From: an uncultured Verrucomicrobiota bacterium
GTDB taxonomy: Bacteria > Verrucomicrobiota > Verrucomicrobiia > Limisphaerales > UBA8199
Assembly (NCBI GenBank): GCA_903873945.1
Contig: CAIQQM010000246.1
Location: forward strand, 8,940 to 72,939
Length of the DNA: 64,000 bases
Direction: 5' to 3'
The notes beneath the pieces are model-generated. The model was given only the letters and a program-made list of their open reading frames with translations. It had not been told where the DNA came from and did no database searches. Below are positions 4,501-59,404 of the stretch, one piece after another; position 1 is the first letter of the stretch; each line of letters opens with the position of its first letter. Position numbers and translations under genes: made by a program.

Positions 4501-5510
4501 CACGAGTTGAAGCCGTTGGACTGGCTCAGCCAGTTGCAGTAGGCAATTGCGCCGAACCACCGCACACTGGTGACCGGACGCAGGTCGCGGTTGTTCATTA
4601 CCGAGAATGCGTTGTTGGCGTATTGGATGAAGCTGTAGGCATTGGCGCCGTGGGTGTAGAAATAGATGTTGGTGCCCCCGACGGCATAAACAATGTTCGA
4701 GCGCACTTCGATCAGGCTTTGGGCGAGCGCCGAGTTAAGGAAGGCGCAATATTCGGTCATGGTGGTGAGGGTGGTCGCCATGTAGAGCGGCGATATGTAC
4801 ACGTTGTGAAGCGGGATTTCATCGCTGGGGTGGTCCGGATCGTAAAAGTTAAAGTGGTCTCCCATGACAAAACTGCCGCCGGGGATGCGGACGTATTGCG
4901 CGGTAAATGAAACCGCGGAGTTCGTGCTATTCGTCGTGCCGGTCACGATGGTGAGGGAGATATCGTCGAGTTGGATCCGGTTGCTGCTCGAACCGCCGGA
5001 GAATTGGAACCGCAGAATCAGGTTGCTGACCAGATCACCCGGCTGCAGGTTGTAAGTGTAGAGCTGAAAAGTGTGATTCGAGGCGGTCAGCTCACTCAAC
5101 CGCGTGGTGAAACCGCTGCCCGGATTGAGTTGCATGGCCCAGCCCTCATTACCGGTCAAGCTGTCGGCTTCCATGTAAAACGAGAGCGTGCCGCTATTGC
5201 CCAGCGCATCAATCCCCAGCGTTGTGGTGATCATGCTGTCGGAGAGGTTGGTCGTGCCATTTTTGAATGTCAGGCCGCAGGGGTTGCCGCCGCCATAGTT
5301 GGCATTGGTCTCTTGCTCGAACGGATTACCGCCGTTGAAGGCGACAGTCCAGGCGTTGTCGCAGCCGATCCCCGTCCAAGGTTTCGCGGCATTCGTCGCC
5401 ATTGTTTCCAGGAACACGGTGGTTGTTGCCGCCTGAGCGCGCCAGCCGTCCAACTCGCCGAACACTAGCAACGCGAGGGCGAATGCCATGGGAATACATT
5501 TCATTTTCAT
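1566..5510 (-). CDS. 1314-aa secreted multidomain protein: unknown N-module + FGE-sulfatase-like domain + ASST-like beta-propeller + Ig-like modules + FYR-type tail
   Basis: Signal MKMKCIPMAFALALLVFG. FGE-like strings: YVRIPGGSFVMGD, RLPTEAEWEYCAHGG, GLYDMAGNVWEWVNDWY, RGLRGGTWF. ASST-like strings: YLLNNAGQYVHKWTS, HHDFKVLPNGNLIMIV, VWEWHSWDHLIQDYD, HFNGIDYNPQFDQILISCRCNSEIWVIDH, GDLLYRWGNPQQY, ANGNTLITHG. Module with FDDGLHQDGAAGDGIYGG. Tail ends YYRVQLAP. A 20-nt gap to the downstream gene suggests co-transcription. Confidence 0.8.
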   Translation of the reverse strand: MKMKCIPMAFALALLVFGELDGWRAQAATTTVFLETMATNAAKPWTGIGCDNAWTVAFNGGNPFEQETNANYGGGNPCGLTFKNGTTNLSDSMITTTLGIDALGNSGTLSFYMEADSLTGNEGWAMQLNPGSGFTTRLSELTASNHTFQLYTYNLQPGDLVSNLILRFQFSGGSSSNRIQLDDISLTIVTGTTNSTNSAVSFTAQYVRIPGGSFVMGDHFNFYDPDHPSDEIPLHNVYISPLYMATTLTTMTEYCAFLNSALAQSLIEVRSNIVYAVGGTNIYFYTHGANAYSFIQYANNAFSVMNNRDLRPVTSVRWFGAIAYCNWLSQSNGFNSCYNLATGDVNFTNNGFRLPTEAEWEYCAHGGLTNPYCMFPWGTNSNADGTYANWQGSGDPFESTNDYPNTTPVGFYNGALRYATNYNWPGSQTTYQTSDGSNPFGLYDMAGNVWEWVNDWYASAYYAYCTNNNIVTNPPGPVTGDIFTDYGNMAYRGLRGGTWFNGGGQQFYGYSRVSNRDPSWSLGTPPDGNADTAWFQVGFRVMRPEKLTQTVGLFLNATNACPGYTLMSPMQGTNAYLLNNAGQYVHKWTSQYCPGRGDYLMTNGHYFRECSVRTILSTGGGEGGRHEERDWEGNLVWAFDLNTSTNMSHHDFKVLPNGNLIMIVCEYKSLADVIAAGFNTNLCVSAITANGGFMLPDYIAEVQPTRPYGGNIVWEWHSWDHLIQDYDSTKHNYGVVSNNVGLINANPPSGQNQQFWNHFNGIDYNPQFDQILISCRCNSEIWVIDHSTTTAQAAGHTGGSYGKGGDLLYRWGNPQQYKLGTQANEILWQQHCCIWIPANYPGAGHILIFNNGNGGRGYTSVDEIVPPVDAYGNYSRTTGAAFGPANLYWTYTNNPATNFYCSDIGGAEREANGNTLITHGTHGTLFEVTTNGTTVWSYINPETSTPLAQGSAIPPDPNMAGQWYNEVFKVHRYPTNFVGFTGKDLTPRGTVETYTGAATDSVGLGLPDIWVRAHFGTLSAVTATSDHNGDGLTDIQCYQWGLDPTAWNTPVIAAITQTPVSPTSADAVWVTAQLTDNVSSTRQLMLNCNTGGGWTNVTLFDDGLHQDGAAGDGIYGGQIAAQPSGATVSYYLAASDSLGLTATTPAGAPGTTYSYVVQTVATNVQPIITGVTHTPGGVQIAWASVAGKDYIVLWKATTNAPAWYFLDLVTSSATNTTYMDTSSTQPTGEYGILDVSTDQFVPIASEDAIPATLNLSWTSLPSRTYTVLYGPTLGASSWTTISTNQSIGTLTSFSDTNSVRVGQPQGYYRVQLAP

Positions 5511-5629: not shown

Positions 5630-7930
5630 TCAGGGCATGCTGACGCCGACGCGGTAGGAGCGCTGGCCGTCCGTGGGCGAAGGGTCCGTGAGCGTGTCCA
5701 CACCGCCGCTGCCGGGGATTCCGGTTTGGGACGGGATATTCGTCCACCCCCCGGCAGTGAGGTCGGTCCGGTAATACAGGGTGTATTTGCGGTTGGCGGA
5801 GGACGGGTAAGACACGGCCAAGCCCGTGGAGTTCGAGACGCTCAAGATGTAGAAGCGAGACAGCGCGTTGGTCGGGTTCGTGTCGGCGATGTATTCCTGC
5901 AGATTGTTCATGCCGTCGCCGTCCGGATCGCACGCCGCACAAGATTGGCTGTTGGTTGCGGCGCCAGTGTCGCCGAAATACTGCGCGCGCCACCAGTTGG
6001 GGATGCCGTCGCCGACCGTGTCCACGGAGGTGGCCATCACGAGGTTCGTCTGGATGTTGGTGCTGCTGCCGGACGATCCGCTGACAATCAGGCTTACCGT
6101 ATTGGTGCCGGGAAAACTGTAAGTGTGAGTCAGGCTGGTTATGGTGACGCTGGTCGTCGCGCCATCGCCGAAACTCCAGTAGCGGTTGGTGATGGTGCCA
6201 GTCGAGTTGTCGGTGAATGTTACGACCAGCGGCGCCCCGCCGTTGGTTGACGCGGCGGTGAAGCTGGCGACCGGAGCGGCTGTCTGGCGGATGATCGTGA
6301 CGCTGTCGCTGACCGCAAAGCTCGATGAATTGGTGCCGCTGACGGTGATGACATTGGTTCCCACATTCAGCCAGAGGTTGGTGATCTGCCACGAGCTGGC
6401 CGCAGCCAGCGTGCCGTTGCTGCCAGTCAGCGCATTGGTCCAGGTCATGGTGCCAACCACATACGAGTTGTTCGTGCCTTTGATGGTGTAATTCGTCACC
6501 GTGTAGGCCACCGTGGCGTTGGCGTTGGTCGCGTCCACGACCGGAACAAGTTCAATCGTGCCTTGCGGGGTCAAATCCCGGCCGGACAGGCCGGAGTAGT
6601 TGGTGGCGTAGCGCCGGATTTTGAAGACGGTGCTGTCTGGCACGCTGCCCTGCGCTACGGGTCCGCTGGATCCGACCGGGTTGACGTATTTCCACACCGT
6701 TGAGCCATTGGTATCAACTTCAAAGAAAATGCCGCTTGGCCCGATGCAGATGAGTGTGTTGCTGTTCGGCAGACGCTGTGTGCCGGAGATGTTCTCGCCA
6801 TAGAAGCTCGGCGAAGGGTTGTAGGTCCAATAAAGATTCGTGGGGTCGTAGGTCGCCGTGATGTTAGTGGCGAGGGTATAGTTGGTGACGCTCGCGTTCG
6901 TATAAATGGGCGTGACGAACTCGTCAATGGTAGAATAGCCGCGCCCGCCGGCACCGTTGTTGAATACCAGGATGTGCCCGCCGCCGGGACAGTTGGTTGG
7001 AATCCACTGCGCGTCATGCTGGCCATAGAGCTTCTGGTTGCTGGCAGTTCCGCGCCGGTATGCCGCCGGATTGCCCCAGCGGTAGAGGAGATCCCCGCCC
7101 ATGCCGCTGTTCCCTCCGGTGTGGCCGGCCGCCTGCGCCGTGGTGGTGCTGTGGTCAATCACCCAGACTTCGTTGAAATTGTGGGCGCTGATGAGGATCT
7201 GGTCGTAGGTCGAGTTGTAGCGGACAGCGTTGCAATGAGTCCAGTCGCCATACGTCTCACGTTTGCCGTAGTTGATGTCAACCAGTTGCGGGTTGTTGGT
7301 GACGTTGCCGTAGTTCGCTTTGGTGGAGTCGTAGTCCTGGACCAGATGGTCCCAGAGGTGCCACTGCCAGACGATTGTTCCGTTCGTCGCCCCGCTTGGC
7401 TGCACCTCGATGATGCTGTCGGGCCATAGGCCTGAAGCTGTGACATTGGCCGGAGCGCACCCCGCGTTGGTGGCCTCGCTTTGGGTTTTGGTCTCCCAGG
7501 CGATGAAAAGGATGTTGCTGTTGGGAAGCCACTCGATGTCGTGGTGCGGTGAATGATTGGTGGTCGAGTAAGTGTAGCTCCACAAAACGGTTCCGTCCCA
7601 ATCAATTTCCTGGATGCCACCGCCCAAGCATCCGCCTCCGGCGTTGAAGGTGGAGTTGGCTATCTGTGCCGAGCGAAGGAGGCGGCCGTTCTCCATGAAA
7701 TAGGCCGACTGGCCCGGCAAATAAGAAGCATTCGTCCAAGTGTGGATGAGCTGGCCGGCGTTGTTGATAAGATAGGTGTTTTTTGAGCTGGCCGGCGGGA
7801 AAAGCGTATAACCCGGCCAGGCACTCGAGCTGTTGGTGAACAGGCCAACGGTTTGGGCGGCCTGCACCAGACTGGTGAACGGGGCCAGCATCACCACCAG
7901 CGTAATGAAAACTTTCATTGATGGCTTCAT
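5630..7930 (-). CDS. 766-aa secreted ASST-like beta-propeller + PKD domain + Ca-binding-like linker + FYR-type tail
   Basis: Signal MKPSMKVFITLVVMLAPFTSLVQA. ASST-like strings: YLINNAGQLIHTWTN, HHDIEWLPNSNILFIAW, VWQWHLWDHLVQDYD, HCNAVRYNSTYDQILISAHNFNEVWVIDH, GDLLYRWGNPAAY. PKD-type FTDNSTGTITNRYWSFGDGATT. Linker VGDGIPNWWRAQYFG..CDPDGDGMNNLQEYIADTNPTN. Tail RSYRVGVSMP. Confidence 0.8.
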   Translation of the reverse strand: MKPSMKVFITLVVMLAPFTSLVQAAQTVGLFTNSSSAWPGYTLFPPASSKNTYLINNAGQLIHTWTNASYLPGQSAYFMENGRLLRSAQIANSTFNAGGGCLGGGIQEIDWDGTVLWSYTYSTTNHSPHHDIEWLPNSNILFIAWETKTQSEATNAGCAPANVTASGLWPDSIIEVQPSGATNGTIVWQWHLWDHLVQDYDSTKANYGNVTNNPQLVDINYGKRETYGDWTHCNAVRYNSTYDQILISAHNFNEVWVIDHSTTTAQAAGHTGGNSGMGGDLLYRWGNPAAYRRGTASNQKLYGQHDAQWIPTNCPGGGHILVFNNGAGGRGYSTIDEFVTPIYTNASVTNYTLATNITATYDPTNLYWTYNPSPSFYGENISGTQRLPNSNTLICIGPSGIFFEVDTNGSTVWKYVNPVGSSGPVAQGSVPDSTVFKIRRYATNYSGLSGRDLTPQGTIELVPVVDATNANATVAYTVTNYTIKGTNNSYVVGTMTWTNALTGSNGTLAAASSWQITNLWLNVGTNVITVSGTNSSSFAVSDSVTIIRQTAAPVASFTAASTNGGAPLVVTFTDNSTGTITNRYWSFGDGATTSVTITSLTHTYSFPGTNTVSLIVSGSSGSSTNIQTNLVMATSVDTVGDGIPNWWRAQYFGDTGAATNSQSCAACDPDGDGMNNLQEYIADTNPTNALSRFYILSVSNSTGLAVSYPSSANRKYTLYYRTDLTAGGWTNIPSQTGIPGSGGVDTLTDPSPTDGQRSYRVGVSMP

Positions 7931-54198: not shown

Positions 54199-54262
54199 TC
54201 GCGCTTCAAAGAAGCCGGAAGCTAACAGTGGCGCGGGGGAGTGTCAACGAACGCCCCGACCC

Positions 54263-54283
54263 GGTAGTGTCTTAATTTGGATT
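54263..54283 (+). repeat. left terminal inverted repeat
   Basis: GGTAGTGTCTTAATTTGGATT. Confidence 0.85.
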
Positions 54284-54415
54284 TCTTTCTTCAAGGCTCA
54301 TCAAAATGTGAATAACCATCCCAATAGTTTGTGAATAGACGCCAATATGTTTTTTCGCCCATTCATTGACGCGTTGAGGCGCGCCCCACAGAATCCTCGA
54401 AACAAATGCGCTAAT

Positions 54416-55372
54416 ATGGCGACGCTATTAAACGACAAGGAGATTGCCGGACTGGTGGGAAGGGTGATTGTCAACGGGGATGCATCGTGTGTAAGGACAA
54501 ATTCATATGTTCTGAGGCTTGGTCCAGCAGGCGAATTCCTGAATTCAGGCAAGGAATTTACACTTGGGGGATCAAAAAAGGGGATCAGGATTCAACCGGG
54601 CCATTCGGTTGCTCTCACAGCATTTGAAACCATTGATTTTAGGCGAGAGACCGTTCGGCAGATTTACCCAGACCATGACCTACATGCTTTGGTTAGCCCA
54701 TCGACAGATTTATCCAGAGAAGGACTGGTTGCCCCAACAACTCAGGTAGATGTGGGGTATCATGGAACCTTAAATTGGACCCTGACCAACACTTCTAATG
54801 AGGTGCGGAGATTTTTAATGCATGAAAAGATATTCCGCATCACATTTTTCAAACTCGCACCAGGAGAAACGCCAGTCGGTACGTACAAAGGGGATTATCA
54901 GGGGAGAACCGGATATGTCCGATCTGAGCGGAAAGGGCCATCGGTGGGAATGCGCGAAAATGAATGGGAAGATTCAAGGATTGATGGCGGGCCAGAGGCG
55001 TTGCTGGAAAACCTCATAAAATCCGGCTATCCTTGGAATCTTTTGGGCGAAAGACTCCAAATAATCGACGGCCAGTTTCAGACCGTTACGAATGAATACG
55101 GGGAAATCAAGAAAGCGATGGGAGACATGAAACAGGACATGCCAATTACCATTAGCAACTCTTTCAATCAGCAAATTGAGTCGGTCAGTTCCAAATGGAC
55201 TGTCAAGGCTCTTGCAGGGCTTGGTGTGCTAATTGGGTTAATCCTGACAACAGTAACAAGCGACACAGCCCTAAACTTTCTGAAAAAACAAGGGTATTGG
55301 GTCGGGGTGCTTATCATGGTGGGTGCCGTCGTATTTTTCTTACTTTTGGGATCGAGACGGATTAAGAAGTAG
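54416..55372 (+). CDS. dUTPase/dCTP-deaminase-superfamily domain protein with C-terminal double transmembrane tail
   Basis: Start reset to the ATG at 54416 (MATLLNDKEI). The N-terminal ~190 aa follow the Dcd pattern: NSYVLRLG, IRIQPGHSVALTAFETIDF, SPSTDLSREGLV, QVDVGYHGTLNWTLTNTSN, IFRITFFKL. C-terminal TM segments: ALAGLGVLIGLILTTV and YWVGVLIMVGAVVFFLLLG. Confidence 0.6.
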   Translation: MATLLNDKEIAGLVGRVIVNGDASCVRTNSYVLRLGPAGEFLNSGKEFTLGGSKKGIRIQPGHSVALTAFETIDFRRETVRQIYPDHDLHALVSPSTDLSREGLVAPTTQVDVGYHGTLNWTLTNTSNEVRRFLMHEKIFRITFFKLAPGETPVGTYKGDYQGRTGYVRSERKGPSVGMRENEWEDSRIDGGPEALLENLIKSGYPWNLLGERLQIIDGQFQTVTNEYGEIKKAMGDMKQDMPITISNSFNQQIESVSSKWTVKALAGLGVLIGLILTTVTSDTALNFLKKQGYWVGVLIMVGAVVFFLLLGSRRIKK

Positions 55373-55379
55373 AAGTTTG

Positions 55380-55400
55380 GGTAGTGTGTTAATTTGGATT
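55380..55400 (+). repeat. internal third copy of the terminal repeat (left-end orientation)
   Basis: GGTAGTGTGTTAATTTGGATT is identical to the left end apart from one C-to-G change. It starts 8 nt after the stop codon at 55370-55372. Confidence 0.8.
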
Positions 55401-55470
55401 CGGAGGTTCTTTCAGCCAGCGTTCAAAAATTTGTTTTTTTCCAAAACTAACGGTCGCAAGTATTTTCATT

Positions 55471-55776
55471 TTATTCCTTTTTTCTGGACTCTTTGATTTG
55501 ATAAGCAACGCCAACCTTCACGGCGCTTTTTGCAGAGTCAACCGGAGGCAGTTCTAATATCGTAATGAACTCCTCCGGCTCACCATACGTCCAGCCGTAG
55601 CAGCGTTTAGCCTTTGGGTGTCCTGTTAGGTCAAAAACCTCAACATCGCCCCGCCAAGCGGTCTTTCCGCGAAACACTTCATGCACCGGCACAGTCTCGC
55701 GGTAAACCGCTCCGCATTTGTGCAAATGCTGAATCGCTGTCTGGAGCCTCGCTAGATAGTCCTGTTTATTCTCCAC
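55471..55776 (-). CDS. small conserved-looking hypothetical protein (start uncertain)
   Basis: ORF ..DYLARLQTAIQHLHKCGAVYRETVPVHEVFRGKTAWRGDVEVFDLTGHPKAKRCYGWTYGEPEEFITILELPPVDSAKSAVKVGVAYQIK. The ATG at 55857 would overlap the transposase 3' end by ~90 nt and give an Arg-rich, overlap-like N-terminus. A GTG at 55776 is more plausible. Confidence 0.4.
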   Translation of the reverse strand: MENKQDYLARLQTAIQHLHKCGAVYRETVPVHEVFRGKTAWRGDVEVFDLTGHPKAKRCYGWTYGEPEEFITILELPPVDSAKSAVKVGVAYQIKESRKKE

Positions 55777-56593
55777 TGCGTTCAACCAGATCCGCAACCG
55801 TCCAATGGCTGCTTTCAATGCCAGCCGCCATCGCGGGCGACATTCGCAACGCACCATGCGTTTTGCAGAAGTTGTAATACGCGAAATTCAGAGCAACCGC
55901 AGCCTCAAAGTTTTCAATCTTCTTGCTGAACGCATTGGTGAGGCGCGTGAGTCTCCGGCAGTGCATCCGCAAGGTGTGATTCTGCTTCTCAATATGGCTT
56001 GTTGTAATGCGGCTCACGTCAGGCATGCCGCAAATGATCGTGCGCTCGGTTCTGACCACTTCGGCAGGGCTGTACCTACTTGCCGCATCTTTGTTGAGAT
56101 TCGTGACTGCGTAGGTTTTTACGAGTTGAGCGTAATCGACTTCAGCGCCGAACCCGCGTTCGATTGCTTCGGGGTACGAGGAAAGGGCATCGCTTGAAAG
56201 TTGAACACGCCGCGAAAGGCGTCCGGCCAAATCCTCCATGAAGGCTTGGGCGTGATACAGGTCGCGTTTGCCGACGATGAAAGACGGAATCAACTTGGTG
56301 TCGGCGTCCAAAGCGATGAACGTCCAGACATCGCCATACGCATCAGAGCGGCGTGCGTTCTTTTGCTTGGCCCCAATGAACCCCCAAATCTCGTCAACCT
56401 GGATTTGCTTGCAGGTCAGATCGCGCATCTTGGAATCCATGATCTTCTTGCAGGCTGTGCCAACGCGAAGCCCCAAGCTCATAATCGTGTTGCGGTTCAC
56501 GTTGGTAATTCGCTCAATGGCACGTATAGAAGCGCCTTCCGCCAGCATCGAAATCACCGCCACTTTCTTTTCGATCTTCAGGATATTTGCCAT
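55766..56593 (-). CDS. IS1-family-like DDE transposase
   Basis: N-terminal HTH (VAVISMLAEGASIRAIERITNVNRNTI), QVDEIWGFIGAKQKN, WTFIALDADTKLI, SSDALSSYPEAI, TSHIEKQNHTLRMHCRRLTRLTNAFSKKIENFEAAVALNFAYYNFCKTH. Confidence 0.75.
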   Translation of the reverse strand: MANILKIEKKVAVISMLAEGASIRAIERITNVNRNTIMSLGLRVGTACKKIMDSKMRDLTCKQIQVDEIWGFIGAKQKNARRSDAYGDVWTFIALDADTKLIPSFIVGKRDLYHAQAFMEDLAGRLSRRVQLSSDALSSYPEAIERGFGAEVDYAQLVKTYAVTNLNKDAASRYSPAEVVRTERTIICGMPDVSRITTSHIEKQNHTLRMHCRRLTRLTNAFSKKIENFEAAVALNFAYYNFCKTHGALRMSPAMAAGIESSHWTVADLVERSGE

Positions 56594-56685
56594 ATATGGA
56601 ATTTACCAAAGTCCCGTTTTTAAGCAAGCACTATTTTTATGTATTTTTGTGCTTGCAAGTAAGTATGCTTGTGATAAGTTCAGGC

Positions 56686-57705
56686 ATGCTTACAGACGAT
56701 TCGATTCAATCAATGGGAGGAAAAGCCCGCGCCGAGGCTTTATCTGACGACCAAAGGAAAGACATAGCTCGCAAGGCCGCTGAGGCGAGATGGTCAATGC
56801 CAAAAGTAGGGTGGGAAGGGGAAATGACCATTGGGCCAGTCTCGATTAAATGCGGCGTCATCCCTTCCAGGGAAGATGGCGAGAAGCCGTTAAGGGTCAT
56901 ATCGGAGACGGCGTTTATGACGGCTCTTGGGATGTATCGCAGTGGAGCCCTTTCTGTCAGGCGTGAGGTTTCAGAGACCGGTGCACAAACACCCCTTTCA
57001 TTGGCATACAAGAATCTCAAGCCATTTATTATAAAGCACTTAGGAGACGTGCACTTTCAGCCCACAAAGGTCATCTTCGCCAATGGTTCTGTTGGGCACG
57101 GATTGGATGCCATACTAATTCCCAAAATTTGCGAAATCTGGATGGATGCACGGAAGGCAGGTGTTTTGGGGAAGAGGCAAGAAGCGATAGCCGATATGGC
57201 AGAAATCATTCTTCGTGGGCTAGCTCGCGTGGGGATAATCGCCCTCGTTGATGAGGCTACTGGTTATCAGGCTTTCCGAGATCGACTTGAGCTTCAAAAA
57301 ATCCTCGAAAAATATGTCAATGATGAATGGGCAAAATGGACAAAACGTTTTCCTGATGAATTCTATCGCCACCTGTTTAGGCTCAAGAGTCGGGTCTATC
57401 CGCCCACAGCCGGAAGGAACAAACCATCGTACGTAGGACATTGGACAAATGACGTTGTTTATTCGAGATTGGCCCCAGGAATTCTAAAGAAATTAAGGGA
57501 GCTAAATCCGAGAGTGGGAAACAATCGGCTCCGCAGGCATCATCAGTATTTGACTGAGGATATTGGCGTTCCTGAATTAGAGCAGTTCTTATCAAATATC
57601 ATCTTCTTGATGAGAACGTGCATATCATGGAATGAATTCAAAATCAGGCTTGATGCGGCCGCACCGAAATTTGGGGATACCCGCAGCCTTGCTCTTGATG
57701 TATAA
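56686..57705 (+). CDS. P63C-domain (phage-type) protein
   Basis: GGKARAEALSDDQRKDIARKAAEARW opening. P63C-like core: IIALVDEATGYQAFRDR..LQKILEKYV..WAKWTKRFPDEFYRHLFRL..PSYVGHWTNDVVYSRLAPGILKKLRELNP..HHQYLTEDIGVPELEQFLSNIIFLMR. Start is either 56686 or 56713. Confidence 0.65.
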   Translation: MLTDDSIQSMGGKARAEALSDDQRKDIARKAAEARWSMPKVGWEGEMTIGPVSIKCGVIPSREDGEKPLRVISETAFMTALGMYRSGALSVRREVSETGAQTPLSLAYKNLKPFIIKHLGDVHFQPTKVIFANGSVGHGLDAILIPKICEIWMDARKAGVLGKRQEAIADMAEIILRGLARVGIIALVDEATGYQAFRDRLELQKILEKYVNDEWAKWTKRFPDEFYRHLFRLKSRVYPPTAGRNKPSYVGHWTNDVVYSRLAPGILKKLRELNPRVGNNRLRRHHQYLTEDIGVPELEQFLSNIIFLMRTCISWNEFKIRLDAAAPKFGDTRSLALDV

Positions 57706-57710
57706 AAAAC

Positions 57711-57779
57711 GGGGATGGCTCGGTGCTGCGCCAGGCTCTACACCCAAGGCTGCATGGGGTTCGATTCCCCACATCTCCA
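57711..57779 (+). ncRNA. tRNA-Ala-like element (acceptor stem + T arm intact, central part does not fold)
   Basis: GGGGATG (57711-57717) pairs 7/7 with CATCTCC (57772-57778), including G3-U70, with discriminator A. T arm TGGGG-TTCGATT-CCCCA. The 37 nt between do not form D or anticodon arms, and no CCA is encoded. Confidence 0.3.
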
Positions 57780-58031
57780 AGCCATCACCCGAAGTACTTT
57801 ACCAGATTTTCGGGTTTTCAAATAGTTTATTTTAGAATTGCCTTCTTGCGCCAATCGCCAATACTCAATATGTTAATTCTCAATTCAATCGAACCGTGAG
57901 AACCATTCCGCTATTGTGTGCCGTTACGCTGGGGGCTACTGTCTTGTGTATTCCTGAAATGAGACAGTATTCGTTCCAACGCCACCGCGACGGCCTGCAA
58001 CGACTTGAAAGTTAAAGGAAAGGGGAAATCT

Positions 58032-58670
58032 ATGAACGGGCACGATCTATGCGATGTCAATTCTTTGAAATCAAACATCATGGCCGACGTAAAGCAAGTT
58101 ACCATCGGAGATGCCCAATCCTGGTACGGGCGTGCGGATGGTATTGTCCGGGCATCAGCACTCCGGGACATAATGGGCGTCATGATCCAGCGCAATGTCA
58201 AAACTGAATTTGAAAATGATTCTTATTTCGACGCCTTGATGTTTAGTGAAATGATGTTTGATCGATCCAACCAGTCTATCTCCCTCTTCACCGGATCGGG
58301 TTGTGAGGCGTTTTTGCAAACGCTACACCGATCTTTTTATTCAGCTCTCGACCGATTGAAAAATAGCGGCGGAAGCGTGCGGATGATTACCACCGCTGAA
58401 CACGTATCCGAATTCCTAATGGGATTGCAAAAGCGGTATCCCGAGACTCTTTCCGTTGCGCCTGCGCGAGCCAATGAAGTCATCGGACATTTTTTTATTT
58501 GCGATTCACGAATGGCCCGAGTTGAACAACCTCATGGGCCATTAACACCCGAAACGCCTGTGGACGCAATAAAGGCAAAAGTCTTTTTCAATCATCCTGC
58601 GGTAGCGCAGATGCTTGAAATCCGTTTTAACGCTTTCTGGAGAGCTGTTCAGCCTGTGCCTAAAGTGTAA
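58032..58670 (+). CDS. hypothetical soluble protein (cargo gene)
   Basis: The ATG at 58032 is preceded by AAAGGAAAGGGG. No motif was recognised with confidence. There is a weak PLD-like flavour only (ISLFTGSG...GGSVRMITT...GHFFICDSRMARVEQPH), without an HxK..D motif. Confidence 0.45.
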   Translation: MNGHDLCDVNSLKSNIMADVKQVTIGDAQSWYGRADGIVRASALRDIMGVMIQRNVKTEFENDSYFDALMFSEMMFDRSNQSISLFTGSGCEAFLQTLHRSFYSALDRLKNSGGSVRMITTAEHVSEFLMGLQKRYPETLSVAPARANEVIGHFFICDSRMARVEQPHGPLTPETPVDAIKAKVFFNHPAVAQMLEIRFNAFWRAVQPVPKV

Positions 58671-58678
58671 AAGGGCAC

Positions 58679-59245
58679 ATGCCGCTTTATTCACTCATTG
58701 CCCTCACGCTGAGTTTGTTTGGGGCGACGTACACTGCAATCTCAGCATTACGGAATCATTTTGACAGGGACATCATCCAGACGGTTGACTCAATCAAAAC
58801 GCATATAGGGTCCATCAAGGGAGCCGGATCGCCTCCGGAGACATTGCAGAATGCCGAGGGAACCCGCGCCAAGATTATGTGGTGGAATTCGGTATGGAAA
58901 TGGAGTTTGGTTTTTCACATCGGCGCTTTTGGATTATTCATTTTTGTCATCGCATTTCTATGTCTTTTTGAGTGGGATGATCTCCCAATCAAAGTGGCGA
59001 AGTCGGGGCAGGATATGACTCAGGAAGCTATTCAGTATTCTGTAACTGGATTTTGGATCGTGTCTTCCATTTGTGGCAGACTAACTATTGCGGGAGCGAT
59101 GGTTGTAAATCTGTTGTGTGGGCTCTTTGCTTATGTATCTGCAGGGAAAATTAAGTCTTACGGAAAAGTTCTGTATGGCCTTGCCAAGTGTGCTGAAGAG
59201 ACTTCGGCAGCATCTCGGCTTTCGCCGCCAGGTTCTGGGAATTAA
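58679..59245 (+). CDS. hypothetical membrane protein (cargo gene, 8 nt after the previous stop)
   Basis: TM segments LYSLIALTLSLFGATYTAISAL, WSLVFHIGAFGLFIFVIAFLCLF, GFWIVSSICGRLTIAGAMVVNLLCGLFAYV. Confidence 0.5.
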   Translation: MPLYSLIALTLSLFGATYTAISALRNHFDRDIIQTVDSIKTHIGSIKGAGSPPETLQNAEGTRAKIMWWNSVWKWSLVFHIGAFGLFIFVIAFLCLFEWDDLPIKVAKSGQDMTQEAIQYSVTGFWIVSSICGRLTIAGAMVVNLLCGLFAYVSAGKIKSYGKVLYGLAKCAEETSAASRLSPPGSGN

Positions 59246-59303
59246 CGGCAACGGCATGGTTACTCACCAGCCAAGGTTTCAGGGTAACGTTCTATATAAG
59301 TCC

Positions 59304-59321
59304 CCAAATTAAGACACTACC
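59304..59321 (-). repeat. right terminal inverted repeat
   Basis: CCAAATTAAGACACTACC is the exact reverse complement of 54263-54280. Confidence 0.85.
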
Positions 59322-59404
59322 CCCGACCCTGTGTCGCGACTTTATGGAAATGAACATCCGGGTCAGGAGGGGCTGGAAGTGGGTCGCGAGGCGTTGCGCC
59401 GCGG

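Follow-up and report, generated by a model that had tools for sequence, protein, structure and literature searches.

Features of the locus

In a 64,000-nt stretch of contig CAIQQM010000246.1, assembled from an uncultured Verrucomicrobiota bacterium and hereafter called the window, we have analyzed a block of 5,059 bp (54263-59321) that is inserted between the ileS gene and a gene coding for a TPR protein, and that carries a transposase gene and several cargo genes between inverted ends. As a first-pass annotation of this DNA had noted, the block is richer in AT than its surroundings, with a guanine-plus-cytosine (GC) content of 0.42-0.55 inside vs about 0.60 in the flanks. Its outermost 18 bp, GGTAGTGTCTTAATTTGG at 54263-54280 (plus strand) and the exact reverse complement at 59304-59321 (minus strand), form a perfect inverted repeat, and flush outside both ends lies the direct 8-bp repeat CCCGACCC, read as identical in its left (54255-54262) and right (59322-59329) copies. 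A third copy of the end, with one mismatch against the outer ones, occupies 55380-55397 (plus strand) oriented like the copy at 54263 and begins 8 nt past the last base of the stop codon of the first cargo gene (i.e., with 7 nt in between). When up to 3 mismatches are allowed, the 18-mer matches 3 times in the whole window, vs 0.01 times expected from shuffled sequences. All three ends start with GGTAGTG, which fits the GGnnnTG termini of the IS1 family of insertion sequences (IS). Seen in the orientation of the transposase gene, the repeat at 59304-59321 is the left terminal repeat (IRL), the internal copy (IRR1) has the place and orientation expected of a right end of the transposase core, and the outer repeat beside the first cargo gene (IRR2) would have been used as the right end.

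The inverted repeats, the duplication and the third copy were all found where the first-pass annotation had located them, and the order that it had proposed (end, cargo, end, small open reading frame (ORF) with transposase and further cargo, inverted end) is borne out. Its claim that the outermost ends were used in the last move also agrees with the position of the CCCGACCC duplication, which flanks these very ends. In a metagenome variant of the same insertion (L089:181-200), CCCTACCC replaces CCCGACCC as the left copy of the duplication, a single-base difference which implies that the insertion is older than some strain divergence.

The transposase gene (55766-56593, minus strand) is a single ORF encoding a DDE transposase of 275 amino acids and, according to tblastn, the only transposase gene of the block. 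The protein matches Pfam family PF03400 at 34.1 bits (cut-off 24.1) and aligns by blastp with InsAB' of Escherichia coli IS1A (E=2e-10), a reference that we built from an IS1 sequence checked as 100% identical to E. coli IS1A. The helix-turn-helix (HTH) and DDE motifs of both proteins are aligned, including DE(I/Q)WG(F/Y)(I/V)GAK and IE(K/R)xNxxLRxxxxRLxRxxxxFSK. The alignment begins at the HTH, and the protein is devoid of a CxxC...CxxC region. The lack of an InsA zinc finger and of an insA-insB' frameshift excludes the classical IS1 subgroup but not the IS1 family. About 8,000 homologues were retrieved by protein search, and NCBI and JGI annotate homologues of this transposase as 'IS1 family transposase'. 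Judged by these matches and by its GGTAGTG ends, the element is a member of the IS1 family, of a single-ORF type, as the first-pass annotation had proposed.

Regarding its organization, the block exceeds a compact IS (about 0.7-1.2 kb and no passengers) by its 5,059 bp and its five non-transposition ORFs, and a single transposase gene distinguishes it from a composite transposon, in which cargo lies between two complete IS copies. With one transposase and its passengers enclosed by one pair of inverted repeats, and with a target duplication outside, it has the structure of a transporter IS or unit transposon.

A clade of IS1-type elements with cargo

Scanning one genome per species returned 80 related loci, nearly all of them in Verrucomicrobiota genome bins from soil and peat, and both ends could be located in 44. 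The ends of these 44 genome-assembly relatives are of the form GGYRGTSNCYTAATTTGR, and a perfect 8-bp duplication flanks 43 of them, the duplication of L071 being off at one base. As the duplicated 8-mers are mutually unrelated, they represent independent insertions. The same ends and perfect 8-bp duplications are present in three metagenome relatives with transposases 85-89% identical to the one of the window. Two further copies reside on plasmids of cultured Alphaproteobacteria: one of 3,370 bp on plasmid p_1 of Mesorhizobium loti 582 (CP050295.1; L210:1799-5168), with the perfect duplication CGCTGGTG, and one of 2,634 bp in Acidiphilium multivorum JZ-6 (NZ_CP041717.1; L211:2264-4897), with the perfect duplication AAGCCGAG. 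The ends of these plasmid copies read GGTAGTGGGTCAGTTTGA and GGTAGTGTCTCAGTTTGA, 2-4 passenger genes are found upstream, and 'IS1 family transposase' is the sole IS-related annotation in both records. Insertion by transposition with an 8-bp target duplication, which the first-pass annotation had proposed for the block, is supported.

The shortest of the 44 relatives, whose transposase is truncated, has 1,411 bp and the longest 8,418 bp; no full-length element is smaller than 1,911 bp. In all of them the left end is found upstream of the transposase match, at a distance of 330-2,378 bp (330 bp in the truncated copy, with an intact minimum of 414 bp), and in about half the right end is found 319-350 bp past the transposase stop, being further off in the rest. 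As a rule, cargo separates the left end from the transposase, and a second slot follows the small gene, ahead of the right end. ORF clustering reduced the core common to the delimited elements to the transposase and the small ORF directly downstream, all other ORFs being variable. Among the 73 cargo ORFs of the relatives, scanned with Pfam and PADLOC, were P63C proteins (five), restriction enzymes of the GmrSD/RmrA type, a SmaI-type restriction-modification pair (endonuclease and N4/N6 methylase), HEC-06, an M78 peptidase with an HTH, DUF4411, PIN, a Clp protease and a STAND NTPase, so that defence and toxin-antitoxin functions recur among the cargo. The first-pass annotation had described the IS1 family as one not usually associated with cargo, which holds for textbook IS1 but fails for this clade, where cargo is the norm. 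The clade is large, apparently undescribed and mainly carried by Verrucomicrobiota of soil and peat.

The small ORF of the window (55471-55776, minus strand; 101 amino acids) has a GTG start that overlaps the transposase stop by 11 nt. It was found in 45 of 45 delimited elements (ORF cluster 2). A total of 1,389 homologues were retrieved, and the annotation of every one of them is hypothetical protein. Its product returned no match in Pfam, NCBIfam, PADLOC or PHROG and no PDB sequence match below E=0.1. The AlphaFold2 model (predicted local distance difference test, pLDDT, 92) consists of a helix, four strands and a helix, and Foldseek gave no match to it in the PDB (best E=0.5, template-modelling (TM) score below 0.4). 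The Acidiphilium plasmid copy is devoid of this ORF and has no room for it, because its right end directly follows the transposase stop. The translational coupling of the small ORF to the transposase and its universality suggest an accessory or regulatory factor. A programmed fusion of transposase and small ORF was considered in view of homologues of 396-409 residues and rejected, these lengths being due to N-terminal over-extension by gene callers. Over their N-terminal ~120 residues, four such over-extended calls (P0009, P0023, P0032 and P0051) share a conserved translated stretch (...WVRKLIGKP...TIADCE...), which implies that some members share a conserved sequence of about 370 nt in the interval from the left end to the transposase. 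This stretch is absent from the window, in which the P63C gene occupies the position.

The search for the 18-bp end elsewhere, advised by the first-pass annotation, located the exact 18-mer on >120 metagenome contigs, the retrieved piece of which mostly lacked a transposase. Where these contigs do code for transposases, the enzymes are only 52-69% identical to that of the window and none is accompanied by its cargo, so that no independent copy of the window element was recovered from them. Derivatives resembling miniature inverted-repeat transposable elements (MITEs) measure 81-442 bp, have exact window-type 18-bp ends and occur in many soil metagenomes (L125:247-327, L130:32-112, L146:1521-1601, L163:2947-3027, L138:2382-2519, L157:9674-9901, L119:1005-1152, L168:2959-3123 and L109:709-1150). 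Most have perfect 8-bp duplications, those of L125 differing at one base, and the 81-bp form is found in both orientations at different sites.

The many contigs with the 18-mer and without a transposase could also suit a repetitive extragenic palindromic (REP)-like or MITE repeat unrelated to the transposase. The block would then be a phage or island remnant, and its 8-bp repeat a coincidence or an attachment site; the full-length match of the P63C protein to a phage family and the tmRNA-like fragment, both described below, would be in line with such an origin. We give this account next to no credence: the ends bracket a transposase homologue at 44 genome-assembly, 3 metagenome and 2 plasmid loci, with unrelated 8-bp duplications that are perfect in all but one of them, the cargo differs between elements, no integrase is present, and MITEs are an expected by-product of a transposon family.

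Abutting elements were also encountered. At L031:5675-5718 and at L013:2613-2656 and 5084-5127, the ends of two different elements are exactly 8 bp apart, and this spacer is the target duplication of one or the other element. Such arrangements suggest a preference for insertion flush against a resident end. The order found in L013 (inverted copy, GAAAAAGG, second element, CCTTTTTC, copy, CCTTTTTC) also looks like the product of an intramolecular replicative transposition.

Origin of the third end

Upstream of the transposase and divergent from it, the window carries a gene for a P63C-domain protein (56686-57705, plus strand; 339 amino acids, or 369 from the upstream start at 56596 chosen by gene callers). 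The protein matches PF10546 (3.3e-28) and, over its full length, the phage family phrog_2384 (2e-94), and homologues occupy the same position in six relatives (L029, L049, L059, L065, L069 and L085). The divergent intergenic region contains an operator-like palindrome, AGCAAGCAC ... GTGCTTGCA (56620-56660), whose GCTTGC/GCAAGC repeats are found at the same place in the first five of these relatives; it looks like a shared, putative operator rather than an end. The first-pass annotation had seen at 56606-56633, within this region and just upstream of the transposase ATG, a weak and gapped resemblance to the right end, and had proposed that it might be the decayed partner of the internal end. 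The two would delimit an ancestral IS of ~1.25 kb (55380-56633), and the genes on both sides would have been captured via recruited outer ends. A third end does exist, and the transposase and the small ORF do lie between it and the supposed decayed end. The resemblance is, however, at chance level (local-alignment score 15, equalled or beaten by 84 of the 983 windows of the element, i.e., 8.5%) and falls within the palindrome of the P63C-bearing relatives. In addition, none of the 44 relatives has an end next to the start of its transposase, the intact minimum being 414 bp and the smallest full-length element 1,911 bp, which leaves the small ancestral IS unsupported. Nor is a capture of genes on both sides supported: in this family the stretch from the left end to the transposase is as a rule occupied by cargo, the P63C gene recurs beside the transposase, and the deaminase-like gene with its end was already a cargo of other elements (see below). 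We thus regard this scenario as very improbable.

The first cargo gene (54416-55372, plus strand) encodes a dCTP-deaminase-like protein of 318 amino acids (341 from an alternative start at 54347), in which an N-terminal domain of dCTP-deaminase/dUTPase fold is followed by a long stretch of helices and, at the C-terminus, by transmembrane segments. It was recognized by a PDB profile match (2yzj, E=9e-14), by Foldseek (dCTP deaminase-dUTPase 4xjc, E=5e-11, TM 0.75) and by PHROG (phrog_1663, dCTP deaminase, 1.5e-8); its Pfam and NCBIfam matches are under the cut-offs and no PADLOC defence model matches it. Considering these profile and structural-model matches together, the N-terminus is a genuine dCTP-deaminase/dUTPase fold. 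About 430 homologues were retrieved, one of them among the structural genes of a prophage.

The 1,117 bp that the window element has in excess (54263-55379) consist of this gene and its own end, a module which recurs on the right-hand side of other family elements. Indeed, L086-L088 contain an end, 94 nt, a deaminase homologue (62-65% identical) whose stop is 3 nt from the small ORF, and no internal end, the transposase having been lost; the DNA from end to gene can be aligned between the window and L086. In L084, the transposase and the small ORF are followed by a deaminase homologue (52% identical and N-terminally truncated) and the right end, again with no internal end. Moreover, the sequence just inside the outer end at 54263, ATTTCTTTCTTCAAG, resembles the canonical right ends of L006 and L008 as well as the L086 end which adjoins the homologous deaminase-like gene. 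The L086 locus (5907-7371; likewise L087 and L088) is a fossil of a family element whose transposase and other end are gone, and it is flanked by a response-regulator gene and genes for trypsin-like proteases.

What remains of the block, from 55380 to 59321 (3,942 bp), has the full layout of the family: left end, two ORFs, a tRNA-like element, the P63C gene, the transposase, the small ORF and, in the place of the right end, the internal end. We therefore read the 5,059-bp block as an IS1-family cargo transposon which is a chimera of two family members fused at the third end and which moved via its outermost ends, with a probability of about 0.78. The small ORF fits this reading, since the window has the short-loop 'GEPEEF' subtype and the deaminase-bearing relatives L084 and L086 the long-loop one. 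The abutting elements of L013 and L031 (see above) speak for it as well. Among the 19 elements with right-hand cargo, the window is alone in having a clear internal end. Weak candidates in L009, L049 and L067 (11-12 of 18 matches, 22-35 nt past the stop of the small ORF) are suggestive, although not significant, as possible relics of internal ends.

In such a chimera, two family elements would meet at the junction of the small ORF and the deaminase-like gene. The order of events and the activity of each end, which we infer, could have followed three routes. One element might have inserted into another, the outermost ends being used afterwards; alternatively, an adjacent deletion of IS1 type might have started from the internal end. 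In both cases the three-ended product would then have moved to the ileS site as a unit, by means of the left end and the outermost right-type end. In the third route, one element would have inserted into the other in the same orientation, the two cores would then have undergone homologous recombination, and the duplication could date from the original insertion of the host element. Whichever the route, the CCCGACCC duplication would flank the outermost ends.

Several observations weigh against this reading or parts of it. The best NCBIfam model for the transposase, transpos_IS1, scores 71 bits, under its cut-off of 100. Between the two right-type ends (54281-55379) only the deaminase-like gene is found, and no remnant of a second transposase adjoins the outer repeat, unlike in Tn1721 (see below). 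The internal end is located 73 nt beyond the stop of the small ORF, a longer distance than in relatives without right-hand cargo, in which the right end comes about 12-17 nt (within about 35 nt) past this stop. Its subterminal 20 nt are slightly closer to a left end (L071) than to right ends, the scores being low. With this distance and these left-end-like bases, it is not certain that the internal end is a canonical right end. Concerning mobility, removal of the block and of one repeat predicts the empty site ...GAACGC-CCCGACCC-TGTGTCGCG..., and the reconstructed junction CGAACGCCCCKACCCTGTGTCGCG, a check advised by the first-pass annotation, had 0 matches in the metagenome collection. Look-ups of identical isoleucyl-tRNA synthetase (IleRS) and identical transposase proteins returned the occupied site only. 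The corresponding contigs, from several samples, show the same locus wherever DNA or gene order is readable, and among them neither the 5,059-bp unit nor that of 3,942 bp was found at a second insertion site. With a single locus recovered, the mobility of the window copy and the use of its internal end are putative.

The subterminal bases of the internal end also bear on another origin, in which a single element always carried the deaminase-like gene in its right-hand slot and two full elements never fused. A MITE or solo end would have landed between the small ORF and this gene and lost its partner, the internal end being what passively remains of it. MITEs of 81-442 bp abound in soil metagenomes, with the same ends and with 8-bp duplications that are perfect in most, the deaminase gene stands directly beside the small ORF in L084 and L086 with no end in between, and the slightly more left-end-like subterminal bases would suit such a relic. 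By eye, a gapped partner end (10 of 18 matches, GCGACCGTTAGTTTTGG) can even be recognized 43 nt inside the internal end, but it is at chance level, no clear 8-bp duplication flanks the pair, and the interior of no sampled MITE resembles 55398-55470, again by eye. The internal end is, besides, oriented and roughly placed as the right end of the core, and the short-loop 'GEPEEF' small ORF of the window contrasts with the long-loop form of the deaminase-bearing relatives. We consider a relic of this kind unlikely and retain the chimera of two family members as the preferred origin of the three-ended element.

Further cargo, significance and known systems

The left-hand cargo comprises, next to the P63C gene, a 70-nt tRNA-like element (57711-57780, plus strand) similar to the acceptor and T-arm domain of transfer-messenger RNA (tmRNA). 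It matches Rfam RF00023 at 26 bits (E=1e-7; gathering score 47) through the ends of the model alone, the central 328 positions being replaced by 32 nt. It has a 7-bp acceptor stem and the T-arm GGGGUUCGAUUCCCC, as well as a G3:U70 pair and a discriminator A, both read by eye. ARAGORN called no tRNA gene in the element and nothing at 57711-57780, and no such sequence is present at any of the related loci examined. It could be what a deletion has left of a tmRNA gene, or else imitate in function the tRNA-like domain of tmRNA. Two ORFs follow on the plus strand, at 58032-58670 (212 amino acids, or 221 from a TTG at 58005) and at 58679-59245 (188 amino acids, with hydrophobic segments). Both were taken from the ORF list and had no Pfam, NCBIfam, PADLOC or PHROG match, and both are called as genes on independent metagenome contigs.

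IS1 is the textbook minimal insertion sequence, and members of the present clade carry 1-6 kb of variable genes, often of defence type, in two defined slots. The clade thus offers a tractable system to understand how simple IS elements become cargo transposons, and the three-ended copy of the window a concrete intermediate, indicating that cargo modules can pass between members when one adopts the end of another. As annotation pipelines mark the transposase alone, they currently leave invisible where such elements begin and end in Verrucomicrobial genomes and what they carry, candidate defence genes among it. The plasmid copies of M. loti 582 and A. multivorum JZ-6 are possible experimental models. 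A bolder and more tentative proposal, which we find somewhat improbable, is that the clade is a dedicated shuttle for defence and other accessory genes in Verrucomicrobiota and further soil bacteria, that the 101-residue partner is a new transposition accessory factor and that the window copy was caught midway through the acquisition of cargo. If so, this protein could, for example, direct insertion next to resident ends, and the window copy would have bypassed its own right end for the end of another element.

Compared with IS1, exemplified by E. coli IS1A, the element has a homologous HTH-DDE transposase, similar ends (GGTGATG/GGTAATG in IS1A vs GGTAGTG here, both GGTnnTG) and an 8-bp target duplication, IS1 target duplications being of 8-9 bp. 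It differs by its single ORF of 275 residues in place of an InsA zinc finger and a -1 frameshift, by an insertion of about 45 residues in the catalytic region of the transposase and by the extra 101-residue gene conserved in its clade. Elements of this clade, with their cargo, measure 1.9-8.4 kb vs 768 bp for IS1, which has none. Within ISfinder, the IS1 subgroup ISMhu11 reportedly includes members of up to about 4.6 kb, and passenger genes are said to occur in the related IS1595 family. Our literature search found nothing on IS1-family elements with passenger genes, on IS1-family transporter IS or on this clade.

Regarding the cargo, the first gene of the window resembles the anti-phage dCTP deaminase defence genes in bringing a deaminase/dUTPase-fold domain onto mobile DNA, but here this domain is fused to helical and transmembrane regions and only the fold is shared.

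Two precedents from transposon biology are closer in architecture. The first is the concept of the transporter IS (tIS) or unit transposon, i.e., IS derivatives with passengers inside one pair of ends (PMC9330008, PMC7986276). The window element shares with them its one transposase and its passengers within a single pair of inverted repeats, with the target duplication outside, and differs in that cargo is the rule across its whole clade, in two slots. The second is Tn1721, a transposon of the Tn3 family in which the tet region lies between two 38-bp repeats of like orientation, next to Tn1722 as a complete minor transposon, and whose accepted origin involves two copies of Tn1722 (PMC5736529). 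Similarly, the window element has three copies of its end, those at 54263 and 55380 (both on the plus strand) bracketing cargo and the one at 59321 (minus strand) standing inverted on the far side; its unit 55380-59321 has the layout of a complete minor element and the whole is flanked by a target duplication. Tn1721 differs by its Tn3-type transposase superfamily with a resolvase, its 5-bp duplication and the truncated second transposase beside its outer repeat, of which the window has none. Furthermore, the independent movement of Tn1722 is proven, whereas the minor unit of the window is known from one insertion site only. Transporter IS and three-ended transposons are hence already known, and the mechanism proposed here is within established transposon biology.

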